64,000 bases of DNA from an uncultured Thermoplasmata archaeon (GTDB taxonomy: Archaea; Thermoplasmatota; Thermoplasmata; RBG-16-68-12). Under the pieces are notes generated by a model, which had not been told where the DNA came from, made no database searches, and saw nothing but the letters and a program-made list of their open reading frames with translations. The DNA lies in the NCBI GenBank assembly GCA_963768855.1, contig CAVYJM010000011.1:192001-256000 (forward strand). Direction: 5' to 3'. This document shows positions 54,387-64,000 of this stretch, piece by piece. Both the position numbers and the translations under genes were made by a program. Each line of letters begins with the position of its first letter. Position 1 is the first letter of the stretch.

Positions 54387-57314
54387 TTAGTCCCGGCTCA
54401 TTATGGCTCGCAGCGATTCAATCCTGGCCGCGAGGCGATCACAGAGCTCACCAACCCGAAGCTCCTCGGCGGAGGAGCCGATCGCCTTCGCCACGACAGT
54501 ATCGATTGCTGTCCGACCTTCAAAGTGGTTCTTGAGTTGTTCAAGGAGCGGAGGGAACGGAACCGACTTCCAGCGGTTATAGACGGTGAGGAGCTCGCGC
54601 TTCGCATCGTCGGACAAGGCTTTCGGGTTGAGCACCTGGAGCCCGACCAGGGTGTCCCGGAGCCACCCCATCCAAGATCCACGTACCTCCGTCCGGTTGT
54701 CCATGAGTTGTGCAAGGTGCAGGGTCGAATTCCACCAGAGTGCGAGGAGTCGCGCATCTTCAATCGAGCCCGTCTTTATCGACCAGAAACTCCAAGTCGG
54801 CGGTATTGGCACTGGAGATACGACCCCGAGGAAGTGGGTGCCTGGAGCTGCTAGGTCCACGTTGTTACGGCCTGCAGCAACGAGGTAGGCCTCCCGGCTC
54901 TCTAGGTGCGGCAGGCGTTTTTCAAGGATTGCGTCCGGTTTCGGATCATCCCAGAATGGTTCGTCTCCGTCAAAACGACCAATCACGATGTAATCCGGCG
55001 GGTCAAGGATTTCAAGTGTCTCCATCCCGGCAGCGGAGCGGATGGAGGGGCGGAGCACTGCCTTCGGAATCATGACCCTCGCTCCCGAACTGAGGCTGAC
55101 CGCTTCGAACTTGTCGCCCAAGTCGTTCTCGATGCGCCAGTTCATTATTACGTCAGCTGTGCGCGGCCTAGAGACTACGGTGTTCTTTACATCCACCCGG
55201 TCACTGTGTTTGTGGAATCGTATCCCCTGAACCACGCGAACGGCTACCTCCGCAAGAGGTGCAAGCGCGGGGGACGAGGGGAGTGTGTAGCTTCCAGAAA
55301 CTCGCTCCGGGAGGAGTCTATGCCAGTCTCTTGAAATGCGGAGAGCTTCCTGAGTTGTGGTTGACACGCGCAGCTTCATCTGCTCGGCGCTATCCCGGAA
55401 CGACTTCGATACCTGGCCGGCATGAGTAATGGCCTTGAGCAGGTTCGCAAGCGCATCAGCGTTTGCGTCCGTAATCATCTCCTGCACCGTTGCGATAACA
55501 CACGGTTGATCGGCTGTGCCGGGCCTCTTCTTCGAGGCGACGAGTAGTATTTCCCTGAAGGATGTACTCTCACTGAACGCGGAACGATAACCAGATTCAA
55601 TGACATATTCCACGTTGTATCGCTCGGAGAGCAGACGCCTCACGCCTTCAGAACTCAGTTGCTGCAGAACGGTGGAAGGCAATACCATCGCCATCCGTCC
55701 GCCATCGTTCAGAAATCTGTCCGCCAAGAAGACAAAGTAGCCGAAGAAGTTCTGTTCCCTGCTCGTATATCCGGCGTAGTCCTCAAATTCAGCCGTCAGT
55801 ATCTTGCGGAACTCCTTCTTGACATGCTGCTTCCGTGTAAATGGCGGGTTCATGATGACAACGTCGACGGGTCGTGCATCGAATCCCTTCCCTGCGCCAG
55901 CACCCGACACCGCACCAGCACGTATCTTGCGGTTCTCCGATTCACCCTCTGTAAAGTCTCGAATGGATGCCTGTCCTCGTGGCATCTCCCGCTGCAGTGA
56001 TCGAATCGCGGTGCCTGGTTTGAGGTTGGTCGAGTCGTACACGGCGACCCGGACCTTGTCGGTGAGATAGCCTGGGTTCCTCAGTGCGAGTTGAACCACC
56101 GCAAGGTGAGCCGCGAACGGCATGATGTCGATACCGGTTAGGTCTTCCTCCAAGAATCGCCGGTGAGTCTCCTCGTCCATCGGTTTGCCCAGGAGTTCCG
56201 CCTTGCGCTCGTAGGCTGCCATGAGCAAAGTGCCGGAGCCACAGGCGAAGTCAGCCACGCTGTCGGCGGAGGATTCGATTGCCAGCTTCGCAAGCAGGCG
56301 TCCGGCCATAGGATTTGTGTAGTATGCCGCGACGGGCTTCCGAACCTCCAGGGGAATCAGGGAGTGGAACATATTCCCGAGCAGATCACGGGTGAACTGC
56401 TCCGGCTGGAGTTCGGAGATGATTCGGACCATGTCCCGGATGTACTCAATTGCCTCCTGAGGAAAGAGGGACGCCACATCAAAGTCGAAGACCGCTTGGT
56501 AATCGTCCTTCAAAACTAGGTCGAAGTAGCTCTCCTTCAGGTCCGCAGGCCGCTGTAACGTCTCAGGCTTGATGGTGGGATACCCACGTTGTTCGAGGAT
56601 CCGATAGAAGACCATCTGATTGACCACCAGGTACGCTGCTGCACGGCGGGCGGTCTCCAATTCCCCTTTGTCTCGGGGCATTGTGGCGATGATGTGCTCA
56701 AATAGCGTTGGGAATTCGCCGTGGGCAGGAAGGAGGTCTGTGAGGTCACGGAAACTCATGTCACGCATCAACTGTACGAACTCGTTAGGGTCGGGCGGTT
56801 TCGGCTTTTCCATGGCCTCTTTGAGCCACTGAGGCAATTGCTCAAGCTGACCCCGAAAGAGGCTGGTGGGCCTCCCCTTGATCTTCAGCATCCCCCGGTA
56901 CTCAACGCCGCGCAGGAGGACCGCAGGGGACACTCGGTCGATTCGTCCTTGCCGTATCCGCGCTCTCAACGACTCAGGGTATCCGATCAGGAAGTAGCCT
57001 GAAGCACCCGAGATGTCGCCGAACCCAATCGCCTGGTTGTACCCGTCCACGTACTTCGAGTCCCACTCCCCTTCGCCGTAGAGGATCGCTCCGTTTCTCA
57101 ACTCGAAGTCGGGCTTGGTGCGTCTGTGCCCACGCAAACTTGATCGCGCACTGACTTGCGTGGTGATGCTCAGTTGCTGGTCCCGGAGGAACGAGGCCAT
57201 GAGGTCGTTGACTGTGTCCTCTGTGACCTCGGGCACGGCGCTGGAAGAGGTTTCGGTACTTAAGAACAACTCGCTTCCAATCGACTGGAAGAACACCTGG
57301 ATTCGGGCGTTCAT
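54387..57314 (-). CDS. Type IIG-like restriction-modification fusion (N6-adenine MTase with N-terminal PD-(D/E)xK-like domain)
   Basis: YYT.P, DFACGSGTLL (motif I), NPPF (motif IV); N-terminal KPD..EGEW. Confidence 0.85.
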   Translation of the reverse strand: MNARIQVFFQSIGSELFLSTETSSSAVPEVTEDTVNDLMASFLRDQQLSITTQVSARSSLRGHRRTKPDFELRNGAILYGEGEWDSKYVDGYNQAIGFGDISGASGYFLIGYPESLRARIRQGRIDRVSPAVLLRGVEYRGMLKIKGRPTSLFRGQLEQLPQWLKEAMEKPKPPDPNEFVQLMRDMSFRDLTDLLPAHGEFPTLFEHIIATMPRDKGELETARRAAAYLVVNQMVFYRILEQRGYPTIKPETLQRPADLKESYFDLVLKDDYQAVFDFDVASLFPQEAIEYIRDMVRIISELQPEQFTRDLLGNMFHSLIPLEVRKPVAAYYTNPMAGRLLAKLAIESSADSVADFACGSGTLLMAAYERKAELLGKPMDEETHRRFLEEDLTGIDIMPFAAHLAVVQLALRNPGYLTDKVRVAVYDSTNLKPGTAIRSLQREMPRGQASIRDFTEGESENRKIRAGAVSGAGAGKGFDARPVDVVIMNPPFTRKQHVKKEFRKILTAEFEDYAGYTSREQNFFGYFVFLADRFLNDGGRMAMVLPSTVLQQLSSEGVRRLLSERYNVEYVIESGYRSAFSESTSFREILLVASKKRPGTADQPCVIATVQEMITDANADALANLLKAITHAGQVSKSFRDSAEQMKLRVSTTTQEALRISRDWHRLLPERVSGSYTLPSSPALAPLAEVAVRVVQGIRFHKHSDRVDVKNTVVSRPRTADVIMNWRIENDLGDKFEAVSLSSGARVMIPKAVLRPSIRSAAGMETLEILDPPDYIVIGRFDGDEPFWDDPKPDAILEKRLPHLESREAYLVAAGRNNVDLAAPGTHFLGVVSPVPIPPTWSFWSIKTGSIEDARLLALWWNSTLHLAQLMDNRTEVRGSWMGWLRDTLVGLQVLNPKALSDDAKRELLTVYNRWKSVPFPPLLEQLKNHFEGRTAIDTVVAKAIGSSAEELRVGELCDRLAARIESLRAIMSRD

Positions 57315-57414: not shown

Positions 57415-58122
57415 TCACGGCGGTGCTGCCGTGGGGCACAACATCGGCTTGTGCCGATGTCCCACTGCTCCGGACACCAAGTTGCCCTTGGAATCGAGAG
57501 TCGCATCGAACGCTTCCACGCAGCGCTGGCACTCCTCGATAAGGAATTCACCCATGGTCATCATGTTCACCTCGTTGTAGCGATAGTTGACCGTTGCCAG
57601 CCATTGATTTCGCTTCGCGTTCGAAAGGTCGTGGGTCAAGAATAGCATGCAGTCGTGTTGTGACTCGTACAGCTCAACAGACTGGTTAACGATTTCCTCA
57701 GGGGTCTTGCCGCACTTGATGTGTCTATAGGCCGGCGTCGCGTGGAACATGTTGTTCCGAACATCTTGGATCATCCGCAGCACGTGGACCGCCTGATGCC
57801 CGCGATGGCATGGAACTATGAAGTCAGGAGTGGCCGTGACCACTGTCTGCATGGACGCCGTGTGAAGAACCTTCGCCGTGTACCTCTCAAGGGCCGCCTT
57901 CACCAAGCCTATCGAGCTTACCGTGACAGCCCTCAGCGCCGCGCTTCGAAGGTCTTTCATGTCGGCGAACGGTGAGGCCTTTCCCGACGCTTTCGCACCT
58001 GCAAGGGAAGCGGTGAGTTCCTGGTCATGATCCTTGAGATACGCAATAGCGAAGTCCACGATGTTAGCTTCAATGACTTCCCTCTTCAACTCATCGAGTG
58101 CCACTGTCACAGGCATCACCAT
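57415..58122 (-). CDS. Putative HEPN-domain protein
   Basis: All-helical ORF with RNNMFH (Rx4H); start uncertain. Confidence 0.55.
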   Translation of the reverse strand: MVMPVTVALDELKREVIEANIVDFAIAYLKDHDQELTASLAGAKASGKASPFADMKDLRSAALRAVTVSSIGLVKAALERYTAKVLHTASMQTVVTATPDFIVPCHRGHQAVHVLRMIQDVRNNMFHATPAYRHIKCGKTPEEIVNQSVELYESQHDCMLFLTHDLSNAKRNQWLATVNYRYNEVNMMTMGEFLIEECQRCVEAFDATLDSKGNLVSGAVGHRHKPMLCPTAAPP

Positions 58123-58966
58123 GCGCCTGCTCTTCAGCTCTAAGGCCGAGAAGGAGCCGGGCGAGGGACGCCACGATGCTTTCGGAGGAGCCGCCCCGGC
58201 GGTATGTTGGATGAACCACGGTGACAATCGTAGTGACCCCTTCGGAGCCACGGCTCCGATACAAGGCGGCAAACTTGTCTTCCGACTCCGCCATCTTCTC
58301 CGGGCTGGCGAGGGGCAGGTGCTCCAGGCCACTTTTCCCAAGCAGCAGCAGCCACTTGGGCTTGAGTATTCCCAGCTCGTGTTTCAAATATCGCTGCGGA
58401 CACAAGTGTTGCATGTTGTTTGTCGGCTCGGATTCGGGCCAATCCGGCGAGCACTTGACCATTTCCAGGAACGCCACCGACTCAAGAGTTTGTGCGAGGG
58501 TATCGGGGCTATCGAGCAGCCTTTGGCCCCCAACGAATACTTCATCGTCACGAAGCTCCCAATCATCCCGAACGACCAGCGCTGCGTAACACGCAAATCG
58601 GTGCCAGAAGACCGAGCCACTGTAGTCCTGGGGGTCATTTCCGAAGCGCGTTTTCTTCGCACCCGAAGCCAAGATGTATTGTGCGTGGAGAGTGAGTTCG
58701 AGGATTGCGGACAAGCCTCCGTCATGATTCAGGTTCAGACCCAAGGCGACCAGGCGCCTTGCGCTTGATTCGTAATCAGGTCCGATGTATGGGATTTGGA
58801 TTTTGTTCCAATCCGCTTTTCCATCGCTCCTTCCGTTCCAACATTGGAACCTGTCGGGGCAGGACTCGTGGAGAAGCAGCTCGTCCAGCTTCTGACCCGA
58901 ATCGTCGAGGACACCGTTCCGCTTGTACAGTCTTAGGAGCTCGGTGAACCTAGCCTCAGTCGGCAA
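58091..58966 (-). CDS. Uracil-DNA-glycosylase-like fold protein
   Basis: FLEMVKCSP, CPQRYLKHELGILKPKWLLLLGK, VVHPT. Confidence 0.65.
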   Translation of the reverse strand: MPTEARFTELLRLYKRNGVLDDSGQKLDELLLHESCPDRFQCWNGRSDGKADWNKIQIPYIGPDYESSARRLVALGLNLNHDGGLSAILELTLHAQYILASGAKKTRFGNDPQDYSGSVFWHRFACYAALVVRDDWELRDDEVFVGGQRLLDSPDTLAQTLESVAFLEMVKCSPDWPESEPTNNMQHLCPQRYLKHELGILKPKWLLLLGKSGLEHLPLASPEKMAESEDKFAALYRSRGSEGVTTIVTVVHPTYRRGGSSESIVASLARLLLGLRAEEQAHGDACDSGTR

Positions 58967-59211: not shown

Positions 59212-59667
59212 ATGGGTTCGAGAAGTGGAGGGGACTTCGGGAAGTTCGCGGGGGCGCATGAGTCGAGCGCCGTTAGCACCGCGATTCAAGAAGTCGAAAC
59301 CACTCTATCCGACAACAAGTCTGCAAGGATTATCGTTGGTACCGCAATCGATGTCTTGGCGCTGTCCAACCCCGCGATTGGAACTCTTGTGGCCACCTAC
59401 AAAGTGTCGAAAGTGATCTACCAGATTGCATCCAAGGCCAGCGACGCGTACAGTGAAACTCGCGACGCGAACACGGCAATCAAGGCCGCGGCTGGCGAGG
59501 TGCTCCACATAGGTGTTGGAGCGACGAGGGACCAGGCCGTCGGCGGCCTGGTCGACGTCGGGTGGACAGTCATGAAAGCGTCAGCAGGCATCTCCACGAA
59601 CGAGATGGAGGACAGAATACTCACGAGCGCTGCGAAGAACACATTGTCGGAGGTGTTGCCAAAGTGA
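59212..59667 (+). CDS. Hypothetical protein with N-terminal MGSRSGG (QatB-N-like, inferred)
   Basis: ATG at 59212; first gene of a tightly coupled operon upstream of the QueC-like gene. Confidence 0.65.
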   Translation: MGSRSGGDFGKFAGAHESSAVSTAIQEVETTLSDNKSARIIVGTAIDVLALSNPAIGTLVATYKVSKVIYQIASKASDAYSETRDANTAIKAAAGEVLHIGVGATRDQAVGGLVDVGWTVMKASAGISTNEMEDRILTSAAKNTLSEVLPK

Positions 59668-59954
59668 GCGAGGAGGAAATCGAGCGCATAATGGCGGCAA
59701 ACTATGCCAACGTCTTTAGAGAGATGCTCCTCGCGAGTTTCAAGACCAACCCGGAAGTGAGTCCGGACTACCTTGCTCAGTCGATCAAGAAACAACGGGA
59801 GGTCGAGAAAGAGATATCGCGGCTCTCCAGTGAGATGGCCAAGGCACTTGTACTGAAACTCAAGACTGAGGGCTACCTCACCAAAGAACCACCGGAACCG
59901 AAGCTGACATCGCTGATCAAGGAAACGCTCGCTGAATTCAGGGTGGAACAATGA
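59664..59954 (+). CDS. Small helical hypothetical protein
   Basis: GTG after GGAGGTG; GTGA and ATGA overlaps with both neighbours. Confidence 0.7.
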   Translation: MSEEEIERIMAANYANVFREMLLASFKTNPEVSPDYLAQSIKKQREVEKEISRLSSEMAKALVLKLKTEGYLTKEPPEPKLTSLIKETLAEFRVEQ

Positions 59955-61321
59955 CTGGAGTCCGTATCGTTGGCGGTCACGCAGCGAAGGGAGTGGCCGA
60001 CTTCTTCATTAGAACGGAGGTGGAGGGGATTCGCAATGAATCGAGGATGAAAGTCGATTTTGGAGATCTGACTCGTTACCTATCTGCACGAGACATGGAC
60101 TTGGCCAGCATTGCCGCAGGGTTGTTCGAATGTGAGGGGTTGTTGAGGAACGAGCTAGTCAGTCTCGATGACGGCTTGGAGATTGTCCTATGCCAAGGGG
60201 GCCTAAGGAACGAGGAATTGTGTCGAACCCTCACCGATCTTCTCTCATTCACCCTGCGTCAACGACCCCACCTCGAACTTCTTCCGGCCAAGAAGGCCTG
60301 CGCTGCCGGATCGGGCACAGCCGAAACATCCTTGCGGAGTGTGTGCCTCTTTTCAGGCGGAATAGACAGTTTAGCAGGGATCCTGAGGGTTCAACGGGAT
60401 CTCGCCCCCACGGCGGGGATCTTCGTCTCGCACAGCAACAGCATGCTCGGCTGCGTGAACAATCTCCAGAGGGACTTTCTCAATGCAAAAGAATTTCCAA
60501 TTCACAGAGTGAGTATTCAGGACGGCCGTCTTGGTCTTCAGCAGATGAGGGGGTTTACGTACCTAGCAATCGCAGCCGTCGTGGCCAAGATGCACGGAAC
60601 AAACAACATCGTGGTTTCCGAGACAGGTCAAACCATGTTCCTGCCGCCCTTCGCAGCGCTCGACGAGATAACCATGACAACGCATCCGACGCTGATTGGA
60701 ATCACCAAGTCCGTGCTGCACGAATGCCTTGGAATCGACTTCAGTGTCTTCGAGCCATTTTCGAATCTGACCAAGGCAGAGGTTGTCTCCCTTTGTGAGA
60801 TGAAGGAAGCTATCCCCGCGACAAACTCGTGCAGGACGAGCCGCTGGGCCAGACAACGGTACTCACACTGCGGCACCTGCTATGGTTGTCTCGTTAGAAG
60901 GGTCGGATGTCTCGTTGCTGGGGTGAAGGATGCCCACTACGCAAGGGATGTTCTCGTCGAGGGCGTAGGACGGAAGGCGCTGGGGCGGCGGCCGGGCGAA
61001 ACCATCCAACCGCATAACCTCGCTGATCTCCAGGCATTGCTGAGGTTCGCGAGAGACGTGTTGGAGGATGAGCTCGATGAGACAACGCGTTTCAAGATTG
61101 AAGCGTTCAAGAAGGAAGACCTCTACAAGCGAGCCGCGCTCGACGTGCTGGTCGGAACATACCTGTTGTACGATGAGACCAAGCAAGGTCACAATCCCCT
61201 GGTTCGGAAGTTCTACGAGGAATGCAAAAACGACGGGTTGGTTAGCTCGGACACCGCCAACAATCGAATTGCGGAAGTCCGCGACCAAAGACGTCAGCCT
61301 GACTTTGACACGAAGCTTTGA
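59951..61321 (+). CDS. QueC-like PP-loop protein of the QatC type
   Basis: LFSGGIDS, LTKAEVV, TNSCR, HCGTCYGCLVRR; N-terminal DLASIAA..LLSF domain and C-terminal extension. Confidence 0.8.
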   Translation: MTGVRIVGGHAAKGVADFFIRTEVEGIRNESRMKVDFGDLTRYLSARDMDLASIAAGLFECEGLLRNELVSLDDGLEIVLCQGGLRNEELCRTLTDLLSFTLRQRPHLELLPAKKACAAGSGTAETSLRSVCLFSGGIDSLAGILRVQRDLAPTAGIFVSHSNSMLGCVNNLQRDFLNAKEFPIHRVSIQDGRLGLQQMRGFTYLAIAAVVAKMHGTNNIVVSETGQTMFLPPFAALDEITMTTHPTLIGITKSVLHECLGIDFSVFEPFSNLTKAEVVSLCEMKEAIPATNSCRTSRWARQRYSHCGTCYGCLVRRVGCLVAGVKDAHYARDVLVEGVGRKALGRRPGETIQPHNLADLQALLRFARDVLEDELDETTRFKIEAFKKEDLYKRAALDVLVGTYLLYDETKQGHNPLVRKFYEECKNDGLVSSDTANNRIAEVRDQRRQPDFDTKL

Positions 61322-61367
61322 GGGTATTGGACTGCAATCTTGCGAAGGGGAGGATGCCGAGGCTTCG

Positions 61368-61505
61368 GTGAGCGCCATTCGCGATTCGCACAGCCCGGAG
61401 GCGAAGGTCGTCCTTTTCAACGAGGGCGATCGGTATCGTCGGTTCAACCACGAGAGGTTCCGGGACCTCGTGGAGCGACTGAGAATGCGAGGAGTGCTTT
61501 GGTGA
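61368..61505 (+). CDS. Possible small protein
   Basis: 45-aa ORF between the QueC-like gene and DUF5131. Confidence 0.3.
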   Translation: MSAIRDSHSPEAKVVLFNEGDRYRRFNHERFRDLVERLRMRGVLW

Positions 61506-61625
61506 GGTATGGAAGAGGGACGAGCTGCTTCGTAACACGTTCCATTGCTGTCCGGATTCAGGCTTTCCACTCGTTTCATTCCCACGACAAGTCGTTATAG
61601 GGGGTTCGGACATTCGGAGGCAGAA

Positions 61626-62345
61626 ATGAGCGCGTCCTCGACGATAGAGTGGACGAACGCGACATGGAATCCGATAACTGGCTGCACCAAGGTTAGCCAG
61701 GGCTGTAAGCATTGCTACGCGGAGCGGTTTGCCGAGCGCTTCCGAGGCGTTCCAGGTCACCCCTATGAGCAGGGTTTCGACCTGCGCATGTGGCCTGACC
61801 GGTTGACTTTGCCTCTGCAATGGCCGGAGCCTAGGCGCATATTCGTGAACTCAATGAGCGATTTGTATCACGAGCGGGTCCCACTCGGTTTCATCACCGC
61901 TGTGTTTGACACTATGGTCCAAGCCCGGTGGCACACGTTTCAGATTCTCACGAAGAGGGCAACTCGTCTCGCGCAACTCGGTCCCACGCTGCCGTGGCAG
62001 TCCAACATATGGCAGGGGGTAAGCATCGAAAACATGGATGTGGCCTGGAGGGCAGACGAACTCCGGAAGGTTCCAGCCGAAGTACGATTCCTGTCGCTCG
62101 AACCGCTGTTGGGACCCCTTGACTACCTGGACCTGACCGGAATCCAATGGGTGATCGTAGGCGGGGAAAGCGGGCCGGGCGCGAGACCGATGAAGAAGCA
62201 GTGGATCAGGTCACTTCGCGACCGGTGTCGTCGAGAGGCAGTACCTTTCTTCTTTAAGCAGTGGGGCGGGCCGATCAAGAGTCGGACCGGTCGGATACTA
62301 GATGGAAAGACGTGGGACGAGATGCCTTCCGTGAATGCCTTCTGA
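61626..62345 (+). CDS. DUF5131 / phage Gp37-Gp68 family (three-Cys, radical-SAM-like)
   Basis: IEWTNATWNPITGCTKVSQGCKHCYA, FVNSMSDL, FLSLEPLLG, WVIVGGESGP, FFFKQWGG. Confidence 0.92.
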   Translation: MSASSTIEWTNATWNPITGCTKVSQGCKHCYAERFAERFRGVPGHPYEQGFDLRMWPDRLTLPLQWPEPRRIFVNSMSDLYHERVPLGFITAVFDTMVQARWHTFQILTKRATRLAQLGPTLPWQSNIWQGVSIENMDVAWRADELRKVPAEVRFLSLEPLLGPLDYLDLTGIQWVIVGGESGPGARPMKKQWIRSLRDRCRREAVPFFFKQWGGPIKSRTGRILDGKTWDEMPSVNAF

Positions 62346-63336
62346 CCTATCTGAGGACCTGCCGGTCGACAAAGTCGCAATTCACACTCGTCAGAAACAT
62401 GCCCTGCTGGAGGCATACCTCAGGGTTTGGACTCAGAATGTTGCGACCAACTGGGGACCGGATTCACCGAGCCTAGACATCTACGACCTGTTCGCGGGTA
62501 CCGGGCAGTGTGTTGAGCGTGAGTATCGAAAGGACCGCTGGCCGGGGACTGCCATTGTGTCGGCTGAGCAACTCAAGGTCTACCCAAGCAGGAGGAAATG
62601 CGTCCTGTTCCTGAATTCGTGGGCGGAGGACCCGATTGAGTGTTCGCGTAATCTCGATGCGCTCGTGCAACGGGTCCAGGCAACTGGCCTGGAGCGGCCC
62701 AATCGAAAAGTCAGACTGATCTCTGAGGAACTGGCTGCCGCTTTGCCAATCGCCCTAGAGGTCCAGTCTCCAAGGAGGAACTATCCGAGCCTGTGGATAT
62801 TGGACCCTTATGCAGCATCTGACTTGCCCTGGGAAGCTGTAGAGCTGATTGCGAACCAAGTCGGGACATACACGACCAAAGCCGGTGACTCAGTGAGTCG
62901 TCGCCCGGAACTCTTCATCAACTTCATGACCAGCTCACTACAACGAAACATCCACAACCTGCCCATGGTGACCCGTGCGCTCGGCTGTTCCGCGCCGGAA
63001 TGGGAGGATCATCTCCGCGAGGTGGAATCGTCAGGCGGGACATCCCTCGATGCTCTCACGACGTTCTATTTCTCCCAGCTGCAGGAACTCTATAGCCGGG
63101 ACCCGGAGGCCACGACGATCACGGGGAAAGACGGAAACCCTGTCTCGGTGGTGTTCCTCGCCGTCGAGCGGCCGGCTGCCTGGTACTCAATTAGGAGGGA
63201 ATCCATCCCTCGCTTCGAAGACTGGCGGGAGCACAAGTACGAACCTCGGAAGGAATGGGTCCGCAGGAGGCACAAGATTGACCGCAACATGCCGAAGGGG
63301 CAGAAACAAACCGAACTCGAAGACTCGTATACATAG
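62335..63336 (+). CDS. tcmP: Three-Cys-motif partner protein TcmP (methyltransferase-like)
   Basis: HT..KH.LL..YL, DLFAGTG, LDPY, ELFINF; coupled to DUF5131. Confidence 0.75.
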   Translation: MPSDLSEDLPVDKVAIHTRQKHALLEAYLRVWTQNVATNWGPDSPSLDIYDLFAGTGQCVEREYRKDRWPGTAIVSAEQLKVYPSRRKCVLFLNSWAEDPIECSRNLDALVQRVQATGLERPNRKVRLISEELAAALPIALEVQSPRRNYPSLWILDPYAASDLPWEAVELIANQVGTYTTKAGDSVSRRPELFINFMTSSLQRNIHNLPMVTRALGCSAPEWEDHLREVESSGGTSLDALTTFYFSQLQELYSRDPEATTITGKDGNPVSVVFLAVERPAAWYSIRRESIPRFEDWREHKYEPRKEWVRRRHKIDRNMPKGQKQTELEDSYT

Positions 63337-63720: not shown

Positions 63721-63948
63721 ATGCCTAGAATCTTCGGACCGATTGGTATCTCTCGAAGGGGAAAACTCTATTTCTCCTTTGGCTCGCTCTTCAGGAGCGC
63801 CTTCAAACCACCGCGTAAGTCGAAGCCTTATCGAGCGCGGTGCGCGGCTTTCACCAAGAATGGCAACCCTTGCAGGAACTATGCCTCGATTGGAGCTTTT
63901 TGCCGTATTCATGCAAGTAACTTCGCTTCGGGTTTTCGCGAGCGATAG
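63721..63948 (+). CDS. Small basic protein with CCCH-like motif
   Basis: RCAAFTKNGNPCRN....FCRIH. Confidence 0.5.
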   Translation: MPRIFGPIGISRRGKLYFSFGSLFRSAFKPPRKSKPYRARCAAFTKNGNPCRNYASIGAFCRIHASNFASGFRER

Positions 63949-64000
63949 CCTCCTTCGGAGGCCGCCCGAGCAGCACCACAGGAGAACGGTGCCCGCTCTT

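Follow-up and report, generated by a model that had tools for sequence, protein, structure and literature searches.

A 64,000-nt stretch of DNA from an uncultured Thermoplasmata archaeon (contig CAVYJM010000011.1), hereafter called the window, carries a block of five genes between positions 59212 and 63336, all on the + strand. The first three encode two small proteins, designated s1 and s2, and an enzyme related to QatC of the QatABCD defense system. The remaining two encode a DUF5131 protein and its partner TcmP. All five open reading frames (ORFs) are real at the coordinates given here, as are their motifs and overlapping start and stop codons.

59212–59667, + strand: s1, 151 aa; begins with ATG at 59212 (ATG-GGT), and the protein starts MGSRSGGDF.
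59664–59954, + strand: s2, 96 aa; GTG start overlapping the s1 stop codon (GTGA).
59951–61321, + strand: QatC-like gene, 456 aa; ATG overlapping the s2 stop codon (ATGA).
61626–62345, + strand: DUF5131 gene, three-Cys motif, Gp37/Gp68-type; part of a separate neighboring module.
62335–63336, + strand: TcmP (three-Cys-motif partner protein); overlaps the DUF5131 gene by 11 nt and belongs to the same module.

These five genes are two separate modules inside a tRNA-Val-linked archaeal genomic island. The first three genes, called the trio below, probably form a QatBC-like module of minimal size, in which an N-terminal glycine is modified and the partner, encoded by two genes, has no sequence relationship to QatB. 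Two of the gene boundaries allow other choices. A longer, 130-aa form of s2 beginning at 59562 is present in the ORF list, and homologues favor the 96-aa form. The longest DUF5131 ORF matches Pfam from its residue 32 onward, and a GGAGG sequence is located 6 nt before the ATG at 61626. Rfam models detected no RNA family over 58.8–64 kb.

The QatC-like enzyme and its small partners

Judged by its sequence, the 456-aa protein is a QatC-type PP-loop ATP pyrophosphatase that belongs to the QueC family and is extended at both its N- and C-termini. It matches the NCBIfam QatC model NF041925 over residues 97–331 (E 1e-24), the PADLOC QatC model (E 1.5e-22), and the QatC chains of PDB entries 9vlk and 9zee (E 3e-9). 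The match to PF06508 is weak, at 27 bits and covering residues 198–319 only. A profile of the enzymes that occur with s1 and s2 (class I, described below) was aligned by hhalign to QatC enzymes whose partners begin with MGTS (class III), one of which, from locus L011, scores 198 bits on PADLOC QatC. This alignment spans residues 1–403 of 456 (100%, E 1.4e-43), and therefore the N- and C-terminal extensions of the enzyme are homologous to those of QatC.

A preliminary description of this DNA had reported an SGGxDS motif, a CxxCxxC motif, and an N-terminal extension in this protein, along with translational coupling to the two small genes, and each of these features is borne out. SGGIDS occupies residues 135–140 and CGTCYGC residues 307–313. 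The zinc site is formed by C294 together with C307, C310, and C313, followed by R316 and R317, and these residues are invariant or nearly so in 29 homologues. Also invariant across the 29 homologues are SGGxDS, H161, R200, E224xG226, T241xT243-T-H245-P246, P269(x)4T274K275, C294, and the CGxCxxC-RR zinc motif. The ExG, HP, P(x)4TK, and CGxCxxC..RR elements are QatC-specific signatures (PMC13329287), and all of them are kept by the enzyme. Likewise present are the two invariant threonines that replace the Tyr and Asp residues with which QueC binds its nucleobase (PMC13279940); the Thr and HP residues align to the TRTTHP stretch of 9vlk. An invariant glutamate, E62, aligns to a conserved Asp of class III QatC. 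The canonical QueC motifs YxQxHxxE, VPxRN, and YPDC, with a full-length Pfam/QueC match, were not found in the enzyme.

The s1 protein is predicted to be entirely helical and has no match in Pfam, NCBIfam, PADLOC, PHROG, or the PDB. Its look-alikes in the Atlas are uninformative. The s2 product is a four-helix protein whose AlphaFold2 (AF2) model has a predicted local distance difference test (pLDDT) score of 90.6, and it is conserved, in the same place, throughout the class I loci. A phmmer search of s1 and s2 against PDB sequences returned nothing meaningful, and neither protein matches PADLOC QatB. The QatB-like traits of s1 are its Met-Gly start and its helical prediction, and fold comparison with the s2 model gave generic bundles only.

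Orthologues of s1 lie directly upstream of s2 and a QatC-like gene in 13 distinct loci, and the codon directly before the invariant glycine is ATG in five of them, TTG in six, GTG in one, and CTG in one. A start codon stands immediately before the invariant Gly-x-Arg in 12 of the 13 loci, with a Shine–Dalgarno (SD)-like sequence ahead of it. Residues upstream of this glycine are not conserved, and the G1 and R3 positions are invariant in the alignment. From this pattern, s1 is predicted to be an acceptor substrate whose N-terminal glycine becomes exposed after removal of Met. A predicted complex of the enzyme with s2 and s1, in which s1 was scored, received 0.91, compared with 0.80 for a control in which the enzyme was replaced; these values were not used as evidence.

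Distribution of the trio and its partner classes

To place the trio among its relatives, 160 loci with relatives of the enzyme were taken from genome and metagenome collections, and nine more were obtained by exact look-up of close homologues, giving 169 QatC-like loci against which the window proteins were searched by tblastn. These loci are mostly metagenomic and interrelated, and counts of them do not represent independent events. In every close relative, s1 and s2 are located directly upstream of the enzyme gene. The resulting cassette, with products of ∼150, ∼96, and ∼455 aa and 4-nt overlaps, is found in 13 distinct loci including the window, and in a 14th locus (L166) the N-terminus of s1 is frameshifted. 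The cassette has different flanks in different loci; the gene that follows it is usually encoded on the other strand, and none of the downstream genes is conserved across the class I loci. The trio is a self-contained three-gene unit.

Within the phylum, a QatC-like gene was found in only one of 401 sampled genomes, which is the genome of the window itself. Neighbors of class I cassettes include restriction–modification methylases, SLFN/AlbA_2, TIR, and HEPN proteins, SNF2 with DUF1156, and MvaI/BcnI, and such genes are near most class I loci. When only distinct annotated contexts are counted, with the window as one of them, known defense genes are present within 8 kb in seven of eight.

Two further associations were seen near some cassettes. 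An operon encoding Multi_ubiq, Prok-E2_E, and ThiF (E1) proteins adjoins the trio in three of the 13 class I loci (L163:10403-12206, L167:10284-12522, and L168:5113-7148), and in two of these a gene for an HFX_2341_N protein lies between the trio and the ubiquitin-like operon. This could reflect either two protein-conjugation modules that recur together or mere crowding in defense islands. Large proteins encoded on the + strand downstream of the trio in two other loci (L081:5924-7603 and L001:3061-5895) are related to each other (21% identity over 304 aa, E 7e-8), and they have no counterpart in the window.

A scan of all loci for ORFs that start with Met-Gly or an equivalent start-Gly and lie upstream of the enzyme revealed three partner classes.

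Class I: partner beginning MG[ST]R, ∼150 aa, plus s2.
Class II: partner beginning MGGR, ∼120 aa, with a helical protein of ∼93 aa after it.
Class III: partner with MGTS..P..W, ∼187 aa, a QatB-type motif.

Class II comprises 21 loci (L003, L004, L005, L091, L094, L103, and 15 others; for example, L094:2074-4527) in Woesearchaeota, Aenigmatarchaeota, Acidobacteriota, and Eubacteriales. Its three core genes are homologous to the trio and stand in the same order: s1 matches the MGGR proteins (hhalign 94.4%, E 9e-8), and s2 matches the product of the third small gene (95.9%, E 6e-9). The class differs from the trio in two respects. An extra gene is present upstream in all 21 loci, and its product has three predicted membrane helices in 20 of them, such that the gene order is the three-helix membrane protein, the ∼120-aa MGGR protein, the ∼93-aa helical protein, and the QatC-like enzyme. 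Moreover, the MGGR protein lacks a ∼25-aa insertion that is seen in s1. To our knowledge, this four-gene cassette is undescribed.

In the enzyme tree, class I forms one clade with a Shimodaira–Hasegawa-like approximate likelihood ratio test (SH-aLRT) value of 91 and is sister to class II, and a branch with support of 100 parts these two classes from the MGTS-partnered QatC of class III and all others. In class III loci L011:5061-11176, L009, L017, and L127, the ∼187-aa partner (MGTS..SP.TP.W) is preceded by proteins of ∼303 and ∼1074 aa. The ∼187-, ∼303-, and ∼1074-aa proteins have no PADLOC match to QatA, QatB, or QatD, and class III is thus a further QatC architecture without QatA or QatD.

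A profile of s1 and MGGR proteins recovered 173 clusters among 1.84 billion representatives, and 123 of the 146 newly listed family representatives start with [MVL]-G. Two hits of this profile, P0162 and P0192 (246 aa each), are s1–s2 fusions, and the s2 part of P0162 matches at 94.9%. Such a fusion is a partner of QatB size. A QueC-like gene follows P0162 in a defense-rich context (L202). A third hit, P0221 (729 aa, L203:496-2685), unites in one ORF an s1-like N-terminus beginning MGSR and a QatC-like enzyme (29% identity, E 4e-45). These fusions link the three gene products functionally.

Proposed function of the trio

Context for the function of the trio comes from QatBC and the Cap9–CdnD pair of type IV CBASS. 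QatB (MGTS) and CdnD (MGGS) lose Met1, and Gly2 enters the active site of the enzyme; a G2D change abolishes defense, and an NDG-modified peptide from the N-terminus of QatB has been detected (PMC13279940, PMC13639016, PMC13376578). QatB and QatC alone protect against lambda-vir (PMC13279940), and this two-component core works without the ATPase or the nuclease. The trio resembles QatABCD in having a QueC-family enzyme with homologous terminal extensions and QatC-type active-site residues, and in having an upstream, translationally linked helical partner that starts with Met-Gly. It differs in lacking QatA (a KAP NTPase) and QatD (a TatD nuclease). Its partner is split over two genes (151 and 96 aa), is dissimilar in sequence, and carries MG[ST]R, whereas QatB is a single protein of ∼270 aa with MGTS. 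Its enzyme belongs with class II to a separate deep clade, and its host is an archaeon. Cap9 is likewise a QueC-family enzyme that targets the N-terminal glycine of its partner (bioRxiv 10.1101/2025.04.06.647259). However, Cap9 is minimal (∼185 aa) and retains the Tyr/Asp substrate site of QueC, and its substrate is a CD-NTase, CdnD, for which a 7-amido-7-deazaguanine adduct (+175 Da) has been reported. Type IV CBASS was not found in the host, in that the genome has no SMODS match and no Cap10/TGT gene is located beside the trio.

From homology we infer the following scheme of catalysis, acceptor, and donor. The enzyme would use ATP to adenylate a carboxylate donor, probably 7-carboxy-7-deazaguanine (CDG) from the archaeosine pathway of the host, where CDG is the default guess and the identity of the donor is uncertain. 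The enzyme would then transfer the donor to the α-amine of Gly2 of s1 after the initiator Met has been removed. The s2 protein would serve as a structural partner bound to s1, with s1 and s2 together taking the place of QatB. Finally, the modified s1–s2, or its complex with the enzyme, would restrict viruses. This last step is suggested by context, because the characterized relatives are immune modules, defense genes lie near most class I loci, and the gene is sporadic.

The donor could be supplied by the host. The preliminary description was correct that the window has no queD or queE, and no queC was found there either. It had placed the source of the precursor elsewhere, and QueC, QueE-like, and QueD genes are indeed present in other parts of the genome, so a 7-deazaguanine precursor would be available. 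Two QueC-family genes lie outside the window (G000:C11:78724-80190 and G000:C6:266752-268238). One, a QueC paralogue whose match spans a TGA codon, is located beside QueD/PTPS, and the other, a canonical QueC (262 bits), is located beside a gene for a QueE-like radical SAM protein.

Several observations weigh against this interpretation. The enzyme scores 87.2 bits on NF041925, far under the equivalog cut-off of 280. It also lacks the N-terminal motifs D(x)4R(x)7WxR and DxW/YxxxF of the broad QatC family, there being no Trp in residues 1–130. Because the N-terminal Trp motif is lost and the NCBIfam cut-off is widely missed, the enzyme is not classed as a QatC equivalog. Even for true QatC, the TxT substitution leaves the identity of the donor uncertain. 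With a pLDDT of 58, the AF2 model of s1 is poor and unfit for a fold search, and the s2 model has no specific PDB match (Foldseek gave none at E ≤ 0.001, and the best VIA Z score was 7.8, to generic helical bundles). Neither s1 nor s2 has sequence similarity to QatB-type MGTS partners (hhalign <1%), and no effector domain is recognizable in the trio. The fusion of s1 to the enzyme is known from one 2.7-kb contig, and because this contig is single and short, P0221 may be an assembly artifact. Cotranscription of the trio with DUF5131–TcmP is possible, given that the 304-bp gap between them has no terminator-like site. What is proposed for the functions of classes I and II is drawn from homology and context.

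A split of QatB into s1 and s2 by descent was considered and was rejected on the hhalign result given above; only the functional and architectural analogy is kept.

If the trio does modify the N-terminus of s1, its role could still be other than antiviral, for example as a maintenance or addiction module of a mobile element or in regulatory protein modification. The absence of an effector domain would fit such a role, as would the position of the cassette in an integrase- and resolvase-bearing island by tRNA-Val and the ubiquitin-like conjugation operons that adjoin three of the 13 cassettes. However, QatBC and Cap9, the closest characterized relatives, are both immune modules, and defense genes occur in nearly all of the distinct annotated contexts counted above. 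We therefore regard a nonantiviral role as unlikely.

Far less probable is a second alternative, in which s1 and s2 are not substrates but accessory proteins and the enzyme, in a QueC-like biosynthetic role, acts on a small molecule or nucleic acid. The QueC fold, the ATP-binding loop, and the zinc site are compatible with this idea, and the genome makes 7-deazaguanine precursors. Yet the catalytic motifs of QueC are lost in favor of QatC-type replacements, and QatC does not complement a queC deletion (PMC13329287). The genome moreover already has its canonical QueC, and a biosynthetic role leaves unexplained both the strictly conserved Met-Gly-x-Arg start and the fusion of s1 to the enzyme.

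Modification of the N-terminal glycine of s1 by a QatBC-like immune module thus remains the preferred interpretation. Its extension to the wider family can be offered only tentatively: Classes I and II may together be an undescribed family of immune modules in archaea and bacteria, in which the N-terminal glycine of an MGxR protein unrelated to QatB is the site where a QatC-type enzyme attaches a nucleobase-like carboxylate.

The DUF5131–TcmP pair, its island, and implications

The pair downstream of the trio is, as had been recognized, a translationally coupled DUF5131–TcmP unit on the same strand. DUF5131 matches PF07505 (E 2e-96, 322.7 bits), phrog_2045 of unknown function (E 2e-94), and the PADLOC models PDC-M41B (E 5e-109, 361 bits) and PDC-M30B (E 4e-104). 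TcmP scores 76.5 bits on TIGR04474 (cut-off 53), has weak matches to PDC-M30A and PDC-M41A, and is placed in the Atlas TcmP cluster at 0.94. A phmmer search of the two proteins against PDB sequences gave nothing meaningful, and a literature search on DUF5131 by name found only a radical-SAM resource. DUF5131–TcmP is an already catalogued candidate defense pair (PADLOC PDC-M41/M30) that is independent of the trio; the two-gene arrangement is the same, and nothing notable differs. PDC-M41/M30 are experimentally unvalidated predictions that come from "guilt by embedding" (PMC10855318).

The preliminary description had proposed that all five genes are one uncatalogued system performing multi-step base modification. 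That the enzyme, the radical-SAM-like DUF5131, and TcmP work one after another on DNA bases or a shared substrate is the least credible of the explanations considered. In its favor, all five genes point the same way, just 304 bp separates the two modules, the gap shows no terminator-like site, and both modules are accessory genes of one island. Against it, neither DUF5131 nor TcmP is present in any of the 169 QatC-like loci, and s1, s2, and QatC-like genes are all missing within 14 kb of the closest relative of the pair (L196; same order, 69% and 62% identity). An SD-like GGAGG precedes DUF5131 itself, and in PADLOC the two genes form a candidate on their own. Of 301 sampled genomes of the phylum, 17 have DUF5131, as opposed to the single occurrence of the QatC-like gene. 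Homology, furthermore, points to modification of a protein N-terminus and not of a DNA base. The earlier proposal had depended on linkage of trio and pair elsewhere and on the lack of a match to a catalogued system; since the pair is unlinked to the trio elsewhere and is catalogued, it fails on both counts. The trio and DUF5131–TcmP are chance neighbors.

The absence of a terminator-like site in the 304-bp gap comes from a sigma-70 promoter/terminator scan, which is bacterial in type and ill-suited to an archaeon. A possible 46-aa ORF with a GTG start (61368–61505, ending ...RLRMRGVLW) lies inside the gap. None of the fetched loci contains a relative of this ORF, which may be a remnant or noise.

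The genome is archaeal by its small-subunit rRNA (1494 bits on the archaeal model) and consists of 2.87 Mb in 24 contigs, 93.6% complete. The block was correctly assigned to a defense-type island. It lies within a stretch of lower GC content (∼0.56 vs. 0.63) that has, on one side, a tRNA-Val accompanied by a putative integrase ORF that matches nothing in Pfam and by a resolvase at 44.5–47 kb, and, on the other side, housekeeping genes ∼3 kb past the end of the window. The reported lack of QatA, QatD, and a cyclase in the block also stands: the neighbors of the trio have no PADLOC match to QatA or QatD, KAP NTPase and SMODS are absent from the 93.6% complete genome, and its sole TatD gene is 118 kb away.

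Other genes of the island are located on both sides of the block. Upstream of the trio, on the − strand, are a 975-aa gene of the Eco57I/N6 methylase type (54387–57314) and a gene for a protein resembling the uracil-DNA glycosylase (UDG) superfamily (57415–58966, − strand), whose PF03167 match of 24.2 bits is just below the cut-off and is accompanied by a faint Brig1 match. The UDG-like gene lies next to the methylase-type gene, and it overlaps an ORF downstream of it, ∼300 aa long, that matches no family. None of these three genes is conserved near other class I cassettes, and the UDG-like protein and its neighbor are likewise absent by tblastn from all 169 QatC-like loci, which include the 12 other trio loci. 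Downstream, between TcmP and the first housekeeping gene, which encodes a major facilitator superfamily (MFS) transporter, two more + strand ORFs of 398 and 124 aa extend from 63743–64000 on to L195:743-2360, with no match in Pfam, PADLOC, or PHROG. The cargo of the island probably ends with these two ORFs.

The five-gene system proposed earlier should not enter catalogues as a single system. The trio has a different significance. Modification of protein N-termini by QueC-family enzymes in immunity (Cap9–CdnD) is a recent finding. The cassette is smaller than QatABCD and is also found in archaea, and its partner, unrelated in sequence, occurs as one polypeptide, as two, or fused to the enzyme. 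Because of its small size, its unrelated and variable partner, and its archaeal occurrence, the cassette provides independent material for three questions about QatC: which group is added by QatC-type enzymes, in what way the Met-Gly tail is recognized (here an invariant Gly-x-Arg), and what role the modified partner plays. The membrane protein of class II suggests an effector. If classes I and II do constitute one family of the kind proposed, then N-terminal conjugation of proteins to nucleobases would be a general switch of modular build whose partners and effectors, membrane effectors among them, can be exchanged.

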